Shown one piece after another: positions 1,641-17,592 of a stretch of 25,991 nucleotides of DNA. The notes under the pieces are model-generated. The model had not been told where the DNA came from and did no database searches. It was given only the letters and a program-made list of their open reading frames with translations. Position numbers and translations under genes: made by a program. The DNA is taken from the IMG/VR virus record IMGVR_UViG_2913137851_000001; one strand, given 5' to 3'. How positions within the stretch are numbered: the first letter of the stretch is position 1; each line of letters starts with the position of its first letter. This DNA comes from a virus. Lineage: Duplodnaviria; Heunggongvirae; Uroviricota; Caudoviricetes.

Positions 1641-4112
1641 TTAAGAATCAGCCTGACTCGGGATCAGTTTTTGCCAGATAACTGAAACGTATTTTGCCTG
1701 GTAACGGGCGTCATCAAGTGCATTATGGCGCTCACCTTCGAATGGAATAGCCGTTCTGGCATCGAAGTCTATGGCTTTCCCCAGCTCAACGATTGTGCGT
1801 ACATCGCGATCGTTGTAGTAACGCCACGGGCAGGGGATCCCCTGCCGTTCGTATGAACGGCGCAAAATCGTGTTGTCGAAGTTGGCTCCATTTCCCCAAA
1901 CCTGAACAAAAAATTCACCGGAGTTTTCGTCGATAAATTCTCGCAATTGTAACAGTGCATCATCTAACGGGATTTCATCGGTCATAATGGCAGATTGCGC
2001 TTCGCGTGATTGCTTAAGCCACCATTTAATGGTGTCCCGATCAATGACTCCGCCAGCAGTTTCCAGATCGATAGTCTTACTAAATTCCGGTCCCATATCT
2101 CCGGTTTGCGGATCGAAAAATATTGCACCTATTGAGATGATCGGGGCATCAGGATTTTTTCCCATGGTTTCAAGGTCGATCATTAGATGGTCACACGTCC
2201 TGCTGGTGGATGTGATTTCGTGATGACTGTTCACCTTAATTGGGTGATCTGCCGTCTCGCCAGTTTCATTATCGCTATTGTGATGCTGATTGCCGCCAGT
2301 GTTCTCCTTGTGTGGATGTTCAGCGCCTTCCATTTCCTCCGGATCATCTTCCTGAACTTCAACCTGATACTCTTCATCGAATGTTTCTTGGTATGTTGCG
2401 TCGCCCATCACCGCGCCACAATCAGGGCAGTTGCCGCCGCCGGTCTGACCGCAGGCGGTGCAGACTTTTTCCACTTCCTGTTGCGCTACTGGTTCAGGCT
2501 GTTTCGTTTCTGGCTCGTTTTGTAACGCATTTGGACTGTTTTGTTCCGCTTTTTGGTAGTTCCGTTCCGATTCATGCTGGTTCTGGTTCACAGAATCGCG
2601 GGTCTGGAGCCCCTTAACCCATTTCGGATCATTCGGGTCACTAATCCCTTCAACAAATTCACCACGTGATGCAGCAAGCAACTTATCGGCGTCAGGCTGG
2701 CTGATATTGGCTGCCTGCATAATTTTGTTTACTTCGTCAGCGGTAACTTTTATCGGCTCTGGTTGTTCTGAATCTTCAGCGGTATCTACATTTTGCGGTA
2801 AGCCCGTGTATGTGCCATTTTTTCGGGCAAAATATTCTTCTTTTGTGATTTCAGTGGCGCCAGCAGCCAGTGCCTTATCCAGACCAGAGAGTTTGTTTGC
2901 GCGACCGTATTTTTCTCCGTCCTTATCTGCGAAGAGGAAATAGAACGGCCCCTCACGCTCTACAGATGGTTCAGCTTCCGGCGCGGTTTCATTTTTTGGG
3001 ATATCAGATACCTCAGTTTCCACTGCATCAGTTTGTGTTTCTGATGACTGGAGAACATCAACAGTGCCCAGGTCTGTTTCTTCATTCTCAAACACGCCCT
3101 TTGTCGTCAGGTATTCGCAGATATATTTGTTCAGTGCTACGGGATCTTTGTGAATGTCGATCGGACGCTCACGGACAAGGCCAAAAATAGTTTGGCGGTC
3201 GTAGCGAAGGGCATCAGGCTGTTTGCGCATTGATGCCGAGATACGCTTCCAGTCTTCGCGGTCGTTGTCGATAACTTCTTTTTTTGCCCAGCGATGGATG
3301 CTGCCGTCAATGTTTCCGGCATCCACATCACTAGGCCAGAGAGCGTAGGCCAGTTCGTCATCCAGTGTTTTCCATGTCTGCTTGTATTCGCGATGAATGG
3401 CAGCAATGACCGGGCTGATTTTTCCTGTTGAATTTTCAGTGTACTGTTGATTGGCTCTGGCGCGGGCGAGATCAACAACAGACGTGTATTTTCCGGTTTC
3501 CTTGCGTTCACCTTCGCGACGTTTTTTCCAGATGCGCATCTCTGCCTGAATTTCGGGCCATTTAGCACCAGGAATACATTTATGCTTAACCCACCCAATG
3601 GCGTGCAACTTAAGCTCCGGATACATGGCGTTAACTTCTGGCATTTTCATCAACGCTTCAACGATATGTCCGTCGAATGTTGCCATGTCTTCCTGCAACA
3701 ATTCCTGTGCGCTAATAACCATATCAACGGTGATGTTTTCACATGTGTCGAACTTAACCATGACAGCGTTCTGTACTTCAGGGGCCAGCTTGTCAAAAGT
3801 GACGTTCATCGGATCGGATTCAGTCTCAACCGGGACAAAAGAAGCAGACTCCTCATCCCAGCGGTTTTCCTGCATATATTCAGCATCCCATGAATCGAGG
3901 GCAGGGCGGGGTATGCCAGGTTTATCCTCGCAGACAATAAATTTATAAGCGCAGTCCTGAGCAGCCGGATAATGTTCCAGGAATTGCCAGTGAAATTTTG
4001 CTCGAGCACGGCGTTCGTCGCCAGCTTCAATGGCTGTGGCTACAGCCACAGCGCCTTCTTCCCTTGTTGCCAGTTCGTCAGGAATAGCGGCGCAAATAAA
4101 GACTTTACTCAT
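1641..4112 (-). CDS. RecE-like prophage exonuclease with C-terminal DnaQ-like (DEDDh) 3'-5' exonuclease domain
   Basis: Long ORF; the preferred start is the ATG at 4112 (MSKVF...), preceded by GAGG, rather than the TTG at 4148 used in the ORF track. Middle region contains DKLLAASRGEFVEGISDPNDPKWVKGLQTRD, which I recall as a conserved block in Rac RecE. C-terminal ~190 aa show the DEDDh pattern (MIDLETMG ... H ... ALDDA). A Cys4 cluster (CTACGQTGGGNCPDCG) lies between them. Confidence 0.75.
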   Translation of the reverse strand: MSKVFICAAIPDELATREEGAVAVATAIEAGDERRARAKFHWQFLEHYPAAQDCAYKFIVCEDKPGIPRPALDSWDAEYMQENRWDEESASFVPVETESDPMNVTFDKLAPEVQNAVMVKFDTCENITVDMVISAQELLQEDMATFDGHIVEALMKMPEVNAMYPELKLHAIGWVKHKCIPGAKWPEIQAEMRIWKKRREGERKETGKYTSVVDLARARANQQYTENSTGKISPVIAAIHREYKQTWKTLDDELAYALWPSDVDAGNIDGSIHRWAKKEVIDNDREDWKRISASMRKQPDALRYDRQTIFGLVRERPIDIHKDPVALNKYICEYLTTKGVFENEETDLGTVDVLQSSETQTDAVETEVSDIPKNETAPEAEPSVEREGPFYFLFADKDGEKYGRANKLSGLDKALAAGATEITKEEYFARKNGTYTGLPQNVDTAEDSEQPEPIKVTADEVNKIMQAANISQPDADKLLAASRGEFVEGISDPNDPKWVKGLQTRDSVNQNQHESERNYQKAEQNSPNALQNEPETKQPEPVAQQEVEKVCTACGQTGGGNCPDCGAVMGDATYQETFDEEYQVEVQEDDPEEMEGAEHPHKENTGGNQHHNSDNETGETADHPIKVNSHHEITSTSRTCDHLMIDLETMGKNPDAPIISIGAIFFDPQTGDMGPEFSKTIDLETAGGVIDRDTIKWWLKQSREAQSAIMTDEIPLDDALLQLREFIDENSGEFFVQVWGNGANFDNTILRRSYERQGIPCPWRYYNDRDVRTIVELGKAIDFDARTAIPFEGERHNALDDARYQAKYVSVIWQKLIPSQADS

Positions 4113-4396: not shown

Positions 4397-4581
4397 TGTG
4401 CACATCCTTTTGGCATCAGACGTAAACGAGCCAGCATTGAAACAATGCATATTTTATTTAATAGCTCCCGTTCTTGTTTTCTCTTGTTAATGGCATCTTC
4501 AGTAAATACTGGGTTACTGATAGTGACACCAATTTCAAAACAACCTTCAGACGTATTAACGTTTGGTAATAACGTTTTCAT
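4393..4581 (-). CDS. dicB: DicB cell-division inhibitor
   Basis: 62 aa (MKTLLPNVNTSEGCFEIGVTISNPVFTEDAINKRKQERELLNKICIVSMLARLRLMPKGCAQ), matching recalled DicB. Lies downstream of DicF on the same strand. Confidence 0.88.
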   Translation of the reverse strand: MKTLLPNVNTSEGCFEIGVTISNPVFTEDAINKRKQERELLNKICIVSMLARLRLMPKGCAQ

Positions 4582-15894: not shown

Positions 15895-16107
15895 TCATGA
15901 AAGGTAAACATTGGCAGCTGAAGGGCCACGCAGACCATTTATCCGGCAAAATTCCACGCGTAATCCGGTGGTAATTTCTTCTGCATCGCGGAGATTGAGC
16001 GCTGAAACATGAAGCTGGACATCGATACGACCATCGGATGGGGTGATAAGACCCTTGCCGCTTTTGCCGTCAAAGGTTTTGACAATTCCTGTCATTTTAC
16101 GGGACAA
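15895..16107 (-). CDS. cspF: CspA-family cold-shock-domain protein (CspF-like)
   Basis: 70-aa product [26 protein letters not shown]... with cold-shock-domain motifs. Divergent from cspB. Confidence 0.85.
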
Positions 16108-16407
16108 AAAAATTCCTTAATACTGATAACTTGGCGCACTATACACACGTTCCTGAAGAAAGCTATAGTTTTTTGATGGGGTTGAAGATGGCTGGATGTC
16201 TAAAATAAACATTGCTTCATATGTTCAACTATGCGTTAATGATTGCGTCGGTTTGAAGAACAGACGATATACGAAGTAGTTTACTAAAGCAGTTCTCATT
16301 TCAGGTGTTATTCACTTATTCCTTCTTTGAGTCTCTCCAATTAAGTACGAAGTCGTTTCTGTTATGCAAACCATTTATGCCGAAAGGCTCAAGTTAAGGA
16401 ATGTAGA

Positions 16408-16623
16408 ATGTCAAATAAAATGACTGGTTTAGTAAAATGGTTTAACGCTGATAAAGGTTTCGGCTTTATTTCTCCTGTTGATGGTAGTAAAGATGTGTTT
16501 GTGCATTTTTCTGCGATTCAGAATGATAATTATCGAACCTTATTTGAAGGTCAAAAGGTTACCTTCTCTATAGAGAGTGGTGCTAAAGGTCCTGCAGCAG
16601 CAAATGTCATCATTACTGATTAA
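16408..16623 (+). CDS. cspB: Cold-shock protein CspB
   Basis: 71-aa product [71 protein letters not shown], the CspA family with RNP1/RNP2 motifs. Confidence 0.9.
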
Positions 16624-16903
16624 AATTCATCGCTCGTCTGTATACGATAACGAAGAAGGCTGATGCCTGAGTAGAGATACGGACAGAGTAGTGAATATTG
16701 GATCTCTTTAATAAAAAGTAAGGAGGTCCAATACATGAAACAATGGCTAGCATATTTGGCAAAATCTTAATCAGGAAAAGTATGCTAACCATTGTGGTGA
16801 AGTGCAGGTTTGCTGCATGAATAGTTTTACAGCAGAAGCTAACTGCTGGCATGGCAAAACAAAGTGCGTAAGTGGATGACTCCCACAAAAAGCACCACAA
16901 TCT

Positions 16904-16927
16904 CAAACCCGCTCAGGCGGGTTTTTT
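16904..16927 (+). terminator. Rho-independent terminator
   Basis: AAACCCGC-CTCA-GGCGGGTTTTTT, about 280 nt downstream of cspB. Confidence 0.7.
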
Positions 16928-16986
16928 ATTATCTGCTTTAAATATATTATTAAAATATAAAAAATACTTGTTACTAATAAAATCAA

Positions 16987-17157
16987 TCAGGCTACAGCTT
17001 TAAGATTTGTCTGGAATACTTTGTTGCAATGAGGGCAGATCAAAAGGGCACCTTTTTGTACTCTTGAAAAACTGTGTTCTGACTCTTGGGTGCAGTTTGG
17101 GCAGGAACATTTAACGAGATAATTACGGCGTGATTTTGAGTTTTTACGTTCTGACAT
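16987..17157 (-). CDS. Small zinc-ribbon protein (56 aa)
   Basis: From the internal ATG: MSERKNSKSRRNYLVKCSCPNCTQESEHSFSRVQKGALLICPHCNKVFQTNLKAVA, with CxxC-N20-CxxC. Weak AGGA SD. Confidence 0.4.
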   Translation of the reverse strand: MSERKNSKSRRNYLVKCSCPNCTQESEHSFSRVQKGALLICPHCNKVFQTNLKAVA

Positions 17158-17376
17158 AGGCTTTTCCTGTATAAATGGCCGTATACAGTACACTAAATAT
17201 GAAAACATTTCTCGTATTATTATTTTATATATGACTTTCTTTCAAAATAATTACCCACATTTTTAATGTGTATGTTTTTTTAGCGCCGTTGAGAACAACG
17301 TGTGCTGTCAAAACTACCCCGTAGACTCCGATCTTTTCAAACATATTGCACCATCCGTGTACATCGGGGTGAGGAT

Positions 17377-17592
17377 ATGAAATCAATGGATAAGTTAACA
17401 ACAGGTGTTGCCTATGGCACATCGGCGGGTAATGCTGGTTTCTGGGCATTGCAGTTACTCGATAAAGTAACTCCGTCACAGTGGGCTGCAATCGGTGTGC
17501 TGGGTAGCCTGGTTTTTGGCCTGCTGACGTATCTGACAAATCTTTATTTCAAGATTAAAGAAGACAGGCGTAAGGCTGCGAGAGGAGAGTAA
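17377..17592 (+). CDS. essQ: Class II holin / pinholin (S21-like) with dual-start motif
   Basis: 71 aa, [71 protein letters not shown]. Two TM segments. The Met-Lys-Ser-Met start gives potential holin and antiholin products. Closely resembles recalled phage 21 S. Confidence 0.85.

Follow-up and report, generated by a model that had tools for sequence, protein, structure and literature searches.

The interval between the cold-shock gene cspB and the gene essQ was analysed in a 25,991-nucleotide stretch of viral DNA (IMG/VR record IMGVR_UViG_2913137851_000001, Caudoviricetes), which is referred to at its full length as the window. An earlier note on this DNA, made from the sequence alone, had pointed out two small open reading frames (ORFs) in the interval: an 11-codon micro-ORF in the 3' region of cspB and, on the opposite strand, an ORF encoding a 56-amino-acid (aa) protein. 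Both are confirmed in the sequence at the positions given there. The same interval contains the 3' untranslated region (3'UTR) of cspB, which is predicted to fold into a large structured RNA and is the main subject here. Positions 16600-17400 are 100% identical to E. coli K-12, where they belong to the cryptic prophage Qin, and K-12 coordinates equal 1657962 minus the window position. The same segment was found in 1,652 of 5,426 complete E. coli genomes. The genes and the terminator between them are arranged as follows.

15895-16107, minus strand: cspF
16408..16623, plus strand: cspB coding sequence, the parent gene of the structured 3'UTR
16905..16930, both strands: intrinsic terminator common to cspB (plus) and ynfU (minus), predicted to be bidirectional; plus strand from a consensus scan
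16987..17157, minus strand: ynfU (b4776), encoding a 56-aa zinc-binding protein with two CPxC knuckles
17377-17592, plus strand: essQ, followed by ydfR, rrrQ and rzpQ

The 5'UTR and coding sequence of cspB are matched by the Rfam family RF01766, the cspA thermoregulator (16247-16639, 158.8 bits). Between 16624 and 16935, no annotated feature is present among the RefSeq E. coli records listed. The description of both ORFs as unannotated thus holds for the 11-codon ORF, for which these records have no feature, but not for the 56-aa ORF, which is ynfU in NC_000913.3. We give a probability of roughly 0.7 to the reading that the interval holds two real features, namely ynfU and the structured cspB 3'UTR, together with one incidental ORF.

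A structured RNA domain in the 3'UTR of cspB

The cspB 3'UTR is about 300 nucleotides (nt) long (16624-16930, plus strand) and folds as a whole at -105 kcal/mol (z = -6.3). It consists of a domain A, a hairpin B, a 7-nt linker, the long hairpin P1, a four-way junction and the terminator. Its elements, all on the plus strand, are listed below.

16625..16696: domain A, the first long imperfect hairpin, with the core motif AUAACGAAGAAGGCUGAUGCCUGAGUAG; minimum free energy (MFE) fold
16697..16732: hairpin B, a 14-bp stem-loop with the 3' arm UAAGGAGGU; MFE and centroid folds, -18.4 kcal/mol, z = -5.1
16733..16739: linker ACAUGAA, single-stranded, holding the micro-ORF ATG and the mapped 3' ends 16736 and 16738
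16740..16795: P1, a long hairpin with the outer helix ACAAUGGCUAGCAUA (16740-16754) / UAUGCUAACCAUUGU (16781-16795), 15 positions with one C.A mismatch
16791..16901: four-way junction, in which P2 encloses H1, H2 and H3; RNAalifold
16791-16799 / 16893-16901: P2, AUUGUGGUG / CACCACAAU, closing the four-way junction
16802-16818: H1
16830-16848: H2, with the loop AAGCUAA, invariant partly by construction
16861-16872: junction segment AAAGUGCGUAAG, likewise invariant partly by construction
16872-16886: H3

Homologous DNA downstream of csp genes was gathered from phages and viral contigs, and from a single genome for each species. The resulting alignment of 47 distinct sequences from about six lineages contains a conserved RNA of approximately 180 nt, comprising the long hairpin and the four-way junction. 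Qin-type prophages, SSU5-like phage-plasmids (e.g., Cyrano), a PHB10-type cassette, and chromosomal copies in Enterobacter, Kluyvera, Kosakonia, Phytobacter, Leclercia, Atlantibacter and Superficieibacter are represented. Overall, the element is hosted by Qin-like prophages, SSU5-like phage-plasmids and the chromosomes of about ten enterobacterial genera. A csp gene lies upstream of it in 143 of 154 loci, and this gene carries a cspA-type 5'UTR thermoregulator in the window and in the four other lineages tested. In the window, the covariance model (CM) R1 has a single match at 16721-16906, with a score of 169 bits.

The helices are supported by covariation. RNAalifold, run on the alignment, predicted the junction independently and recovers P1, P2, H1, H2 and H3. 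Pairing is observed in 98.6% of the alignment cells, compared with 23-58% when the partners are slid, and compensatory change occurs at 10 of 30 base pairs, compared with 0-3 in the slid controls. The covariation score is 0.229 versus at most 0.064, and none of 500 shuffles attained the observed values for pairing or covariation. In P1, compensatory changes are located at alignment columns 49/89, 50/88, 40/97 and 41/96. G.U pairs, for example in 27 sequences at columns 107/123, indicate that the cspB sense strand is the one that folds. The reason for the conservation of this stretch is thus an RNA domain of several helices, which a classic E. coli cold-shock gene carries in its 3'UTR. Bacterial 3'UTRs seldom contain structured domains this large, and K-12 is regarded as a well-mined strain.

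One segment of the element has two possible partners. AUUGU at 16791-16795 can pair with ACAAU at 16740-16744, which extends P1, or with ACAAU at 16897-16901, which closes P2. Both pairings covary: in the P1 extension, columns 41/96 are CG in 31 sequences and UA in 13; in the P2 extension, columns 96/208 are GC in 29 and AU in 15, and columns 97/207 are AU in 27 and UA in 17. A conformational switch is therefore possible. MFE folding at 10-45 °C gave no consistent switch across the lineages.

The structured RNA is apparently uncatalogued. Rfam 15 scans of the window and four other lineages (E <= 1) returned no family over 16640-16930. In the window, the sub-threshold hits were Trp_leader, isrK and P9; the homologue loci gave a single one, again Trp_leader. 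These hits rest mainly on the terminator, and a known RNA family was rejected as a candidate on these grounds. A tRNA-like element or RNase P substrate was also considered, as H2 resembles an anticodon arm, and was rejected: ARAGORN found nothing in 16000-17500, the loop AAGCUAA has no U33, and the other arms do not fit. R1 finds no copy in the ynfU loci of Klebsiella, Salmonella and Franconibacter, and an H1-anchored pattern retrieved no further viral loci. The literature search yielded nothing relevant on a cspB 3'UTR RNA.

The upstream modules are distributed differently. A domain A-like motif is predicted, on by-eye similarity, in the csp 3'UTRs of the phage-plasmid Cyrano and of Salmonella (locus L190). 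The domain A core GAUAACGAAGAAGGCUGAUGCCUGAGUAG recurs at 16625-16696 of the window, at about 1330-1436 of L190 (minus strand) and at 2346-2400 of locus L005. On the Salmonella chromosome, domain A is directly followed by a terminator, with neither P1 nor the junction domain. Possibly, domain A is a csp 3'UTR motif in its own right, with a wider distribution. At the place of hairpin B, Cyrano and locus L104 have strong hairpins of unrelated sequence, and in the Qin lineage three of four stem variants keep the hairpin B pairing.

Some copies of the element deviate from the common architecture. In Raoultella lignicola (L169, about 4470-4560; model match 117 bits), the junction between H1 and H2 contains about seven tandem copies of the 8-nt sequence CCTGAAAG. 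Three Qin-type copies have an altered or missing 5' part (L080, about 2911-3084; L182, 7725-7906; L174, 7550-7658). Their break points lie at or inside P1, which indicates that the four-way junction is retained even where P1 and the micro-ORF are replaced or lost.

Mapped RNA ends and a proposed processing route

Published Term-seq data for K-12 include RNA 3' ends on the cspB strand (Adams et al. 2021, Supplementary file 1). One end at K-12 1641226 (minus strand) corresponds to window position 16736 and is covered by 604,404 reads (LB, optical density 0.4). Another, reported on a different sheet at K-12 1641224 (minus strand), corresponds to 16738 and is covered by 1,233,565 reads. Minus-strand values go down to about 23,000 among the rows listed for that table, and the two ends are therefore regarded as strong. 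They are located inside and just after the start codon of the micro-ORF, 4-6 nt beyond hairpin B. Further downstream, the predicted cspB terminator (16905-16930) closes the element, with a terminator-like hairpin at 16905-16924 followed by a T run, corresponding to a 6-U tail. A Term-seq 3' end on the ynfU strand at K-12 1641060 (plus strand; window 16902; Adams et al. 2021) suggests that this predicted terminator may work in both directions. The same study maps a 3' end in the cspB 5'UTR at window 16328 (plus strand; K-12 1641634) and, near the start of cspB, a Rho-dependent site at window 16425 (plus strand; K-12 1641537). Both sites fit premature termination of cspB at 37 °C.

From the position of the ends in the linker we infer a processing route. 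The cspB transcript would be cut endonucleolytically in or near the single-stranded linker, and exonucleolytic trimming back to hairpin B would follow. One product would be a hairpin-capped cspB mRNA or fragment ending in ...CAAUACAU(GA). The other would be a detached, folded RNA of about 190 nt comprising P1, the junction and the terminator. The ends at 16736 and 16738 are compatible with cleavage in the linker, as seen from the 3' side alone. The conserved domain would act mainly in cis, as a determinant of processing and stability of mobile, cold-inducible cspB-type mRNAs; we favour such a role over that of a trans-acting RNA. Loop and junction sequences that do not vary point to a specific partner, probably a factor that recognises the element through them. 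In addition, the AUUGU segment may toggle the element between its two conformations.

Several points weigh against this reading of the RNA. The curated Term-seq tables give no cspB-strand 3' end at the terminator; these data were obtained at 37 °C, whereas cspB is expressed in cold shock. The linker is no textbook RNase E site, and accumulation of the detached P1-junction RNA is hypothetical. The PHB10 and L093 lineages have only a weak hairpin B. In single-sequence MFE folds, the P1 extension is often preferred to P2. The covariation comes from about six lineages, all of them Enterobacteriaceae, and represents few independent events. Finally, the retrieval patterns fixed the H2 loop and AAAGUGCGUAAG, so their invariance arises partly by construction. 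The junction segment CAUGAAUAGU, which lies outside the retrieval pattern, varies at single positions only.

Small RNAs (sRNAs) of the CpxQ, SroC and DapZ type are processed from mRNA 3'UTRs. The cspB element resembles them in its position at the mRNA 3' end, in its use of the parent terminator and in the mapped RNA end just upstream, and parts of it are conserved beyond neutral 3'UTR sequence. It is far larger and more structured than the Hfq-dependent sRNAs built of a seed and a terminator. Furthermore, one lineage has no separate terminator hairpin, and for the cspB element both accumulation of the 3' fragment and binding by a chaperone are hypothetical. ProQ reportedly binds structured mRNA 3' ends such as that of cspE. 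The idea that a structured csp mRNA 3' end governs protection from exonucleases would be common to both cases and serves as a lead only; the cspE element is a simple terminator region, unlike the cspB 3'UTR. A further likeness exists to the cspA thermoregulator (RF01766) and the 5'UTR thermometers of cspG and cspI (PMC13271884), which are structured, covarying RNAs on cold-inducible csp genes with possible alternative conformations. However, thermoregulators sit in the 5'UTR and the start of the coding sequence (here 16247-16639) and control translation, whereas the new element is located in the 3'UTR. It is also unrelated to RF01766 in sequence and architecture and occurs only with mobile cspB-type genes.

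A more far-reaching possibility, which we consider less likely than not, is that 16740-16901 represents an undescribed class of structured RNA carried with mobile cspB-type genes in Enterobacteriaceae, including K-12. Such an RNA would have a genuine AUUGU switch and be cut at the linker, and it would control the fate of cspB mRNA in the cold or act in trans on a protein or RNA partner. The element could reveal how mobile csp genes control mRNA decay or processing in the cold, a question that standard tools can address directly in K-12.

The 11-codon reading frame and rival explanations

The feature that first drew attention to this region overlaps the linker and P1.

16735..16770, plus strand: 11-codon ORF MKQWLAYLAKS, judged incidental and confined to the Qin lineage

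The Shine-Dalgarno (SD) sequence TAAGGAGGT at 16719-16727 is followed by 7 nt and an ATG at 16735-16737, and the ORF is closed by a TAA stop codon at 16768-16770. The earlier note correctly placed it within the cspB 3' region and upstream of the terminator (cspB 16408-16623, essQ 17377-17592). The pattern TAAGGAGGT-N7-ATG occurs once in the window, against a shuffle expectation of 0.06, and at least one match was obtained in 5 of 100 shuffles. The occurrence is only borderline beyond chance.

Among the lineages of the homologous region, the combination of SD and ATG was found solely in the Qin lineage (Escherichia, Shigella). At the aligned ATG position, the PHB10 type has AUU and the Cyrano type GAC, both without an SD. 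In Escherichia sp. E1V33 (L174), the whole ORF segment is deleted and the CM matches only from position 67 onward. The 105 Qin-type loci reduce to 14 alleles, and the SD, ATG, stop and open frame are retained in 103 of the 104 that carry the segment. Six variable sites are found in the ORF of this lineage (L5P, A9V, K10I, S11T, S11P and W4stop), none of which is synonymous. The predicted structure accounts for the same nucleotides: the SD sequence UAAGGAGGU (16719-16727) lies entirely within hairpin B as its 3' arm, the ATG lies in the linker, and codons 2-8 coincide with the 5' arm of the conserved P1 helix. The peptide string MKQWLAYLAKS was not found in the papers searched. Its coordinates and sequence are absent from the supplements of Stringer 2021 and RiboReport, and no profiling table consulted covers the start of the micro-ORF. 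The 11-codon ORF is most likely a chance reading frame and a by-product of the folded RNA, and its translation is unlikely. It is most likely noise, made to look significant by the perfect SD match, and serves as a warning that SD-ATG motifs by themselves do not suffice for calling small ORFs.

The earlier note had suggested a leader or regulatory peptide. In the specific version of this idea, a translated 11-codon leader would control read-through of the terminator at 16905-16924, and hence the holin and lysis genes. The perfect 9-nt SD with its 7-nt spacing, expected 0.06 times per window, the location upstream of the terminator that precedes essQ, and the retention of SD, ATG and stop in nearly all segment-bearing Qin-type loci speak for it. 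The Qin-type copies are at least 95% identical, however, so this retention is weakly informative, and the conservation across relatives on which the proposal had been made to depend is not observed, as the SD-ATG pattern is missing from every non-Qin lineage and deleted in E1V33. The six nonsynonymous or nonsense changes against no synonymous one, including a stop at codon 4, also argue against a leader peptide. Moreover, according to the predicted fold the SD is hidden in a 14-bp hairpin able to form before the ATG is transcribed, and RNAs with the strong 3' ends at 16736 and 16738, in and next to the start codon, cannot encode the peptide. A distance of 134 nt separates the end of the ORF from the terminator, whose hairpin folds alone in both MFE and centroid structures and has no alternative partner within the ORF. 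In the trpL attenuators (RF00513), as at this locus, an intrinsic terminator is preceded by a short ORF that has a strong SD, but here the ORF is unconserved, lies in a 3'UTR and shows no antiterminator-terminator overlap. The RF00513 CM scores 21.7 bits against a gathering threshold of 41 and covers 16846-16930, essentially the terminator. Leader control of the lysis genes is therefore judged very improbable. A related but somewhat more probable idea, which still appears unlikely, is that the micro-ORF is a recent regulatory addition specific to Qin, and that occasional translation upon melting of hairpin B unzips P1 or shields the linker, thereby tuning 3'UTR processing. The overlap of the ORF with the linker and the P1 5' arm is exact, the strength and spacing of the SD are optimal, and the frame is open in all but one of the segment-bearing Qin-type loci. 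This support consists of geometry only. The sequestration of the SD counts against it as well; besides the natural W4stop allele, there are alleles in which the SD is weakened to GGAGAU or GGCGGU, and the other lineages do without any ORF.

Two further explanations concern the nature of the conserved block itself. The P1-junction-terminator RNA might be released from the cspB mRNA and function chiefly as a trans-acting, 3'UTR-derived sRNA or as a protein-sequestering RNA. It has in common with such RNAs the terminator of the parent mRNA with a 6-U tail, and a candidate processing site lies just upstream; the near-invariance of CAUGAAUAGU, outside the retrieval pattern, would also fit, as would AAGCUAA and AAAGUGCGUAAG, with the reservation about construction made above. 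Yet the curated data at 37 °C contain no end at the terminator, PHB10-type copies have no separate terminator hairpin, and the prediction tables based on RIL-seq have no entry for the cspB 3'UTR, with only the cspF.cspB intergenic region and the cspB coding sequence among the matches listed (2 of 4). Base-pairing targets in the window were rejected as well, since complements of AAAGUGCGUAAG and of the H2 loop occur there at chance level only. A mainly trans-acting RNA is thus considered doubtful, although it is the most serious of the rivals. The block could alternatively be protein-coding and have no RNA structure, for example as a minus-strand ORF of some 91-97 aa, for which the annotation of phage PhiR42_1 gives a hypothetical protein. 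Such an ORF does exist at 16613-16906 (minus strand), and a coding sequence is annotated over the region in PV340562. On the other hand, the PHB10 lineage has no comparable open ORF on either strand, the alignment contains 1- and 2-nt indels, the substitutions take the form of compensatory changes in pairs and of plus-strand G.U wobbles, and RefSeq annotation is empty there among the E. coli records listed. A coding origin of the block is hardly credible. The hypothetical protein of PhiR42_1 (PV340562; L003 2990-3265, minus strand) corresponds to window 16613-16888 (minus strand), opposite the structured RNA, and is probably a false gene call because the ORF is not open in other lineages.

YnfU and its genomic neighbourhood

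The second ORF of the interval, on the minus strand at 16987-17157, is b4776 in NC_000913.3, where it is annotated as 'putative zinc-binding protein YnfU', and its product is identical to the K-12 protein. The annotation is present across the RefSeq E. coli genomes sampled. The gene was discovered in 2019 through ribosome profiling of stalled initiation complexes, when the two CPxC knuckles were already noted. With a sequential peptide affinity (SPA) tag, YnfU was detected at a higher level than any other small protein newly identified in that study (Weaver et al. 2019, bioRxiv 10.1101/511675). It was later re-identified by PIRT-Seq (PMC12350097). As ynfU is already known and has been annotated since 2019, the earlier note adds nothing new in this respect.

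The zinc-ribbon reading of the protein is sound, albeit not novel. YnfU matches Pfam PF23499 over residues 1-49 of 49 with 107.3 bits (cut-off 27) and NCBIfam NF038384 (zinc_YnfU_fam) with 79.4 bits (cut-off 36). The 56-aa ORF is the founding member of this family and does not differ from it. Its cysteines are arranged as C19xxC22-N18-C41xxC44, with an additional conserved C17; the spacer given earlier as N20 is thus N18. Among 23 aligned homologues, C22, C44 and a SEHSF motif are invariant, while C17, C19 and C41 are at least 90% conserved. The four knuckle cysteines are kept across these homologues, with single exceptions at three positions, in agreement with the cysteine conservation that the note had proposed as a check. 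The family comprises 49 clusters at 90% identity, and nearly all clusters with a named source are from Enterobacteriaceae. The AlphaFold model of YnfU is moderate, with a predicted local distance difference test (pLDDT) score of 67.8. Foldseek of this model against the PDB gave small zinc-ribbon proteins on top, the best with a non-significant E = 0.25. A function deduced from structure was rejected on the basis of the moderate model and the non-significant neighbours.

What is added here to the records of the YnfU family is context only, namely the terminator common to cspB and the adjacency to csp genes. Relative to the neighbouring csp gene, three arrangements are found: the two genes are convergent in Qin and Enterobacter, in tandem in Klebsiella and divergent in Salmonella. 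In Franconibacter, ynfU occurs alone. The loci concerned are L189 (2001-2698), L190 (1436-2165) and L191 (2001-2222). Such adjacency may point to a functional connection of YnfU with cold-shock proteins, independent of the RNA element. An obligatory pairing of ynfU with the RNA was rejected, as SSU5-like phage-plasmids have the RNA without ynfU, and Klebsiella, Salmonella and Franconibacter have ynfU without the RNA.

Upstream of its annotated start, the ynfU frame remains open to an ATG at 17208 (window 17158-17208, minus strand), which would give a protein of 73 aa. In-frame residues in this segment (VYC..PF..EK) resemble residues of distant homologues, and the family models start at the annotated Met. 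Conservation of a 5'UTR or promoter, and not of coding sequence, may underlie the likeness. At a greater distance, slightly more than 1 kb from the cassette of csp, RNA and, in part, ynfU, the Rfam sRNA STnc100 scores above threshold at L004 3788-3989 (plus strand) and L093 1093-1286 (minus strand). These two loci are of the PHB10 and Enterobacter types, respectively, and the scanned region of the Qin window has no equivalent.

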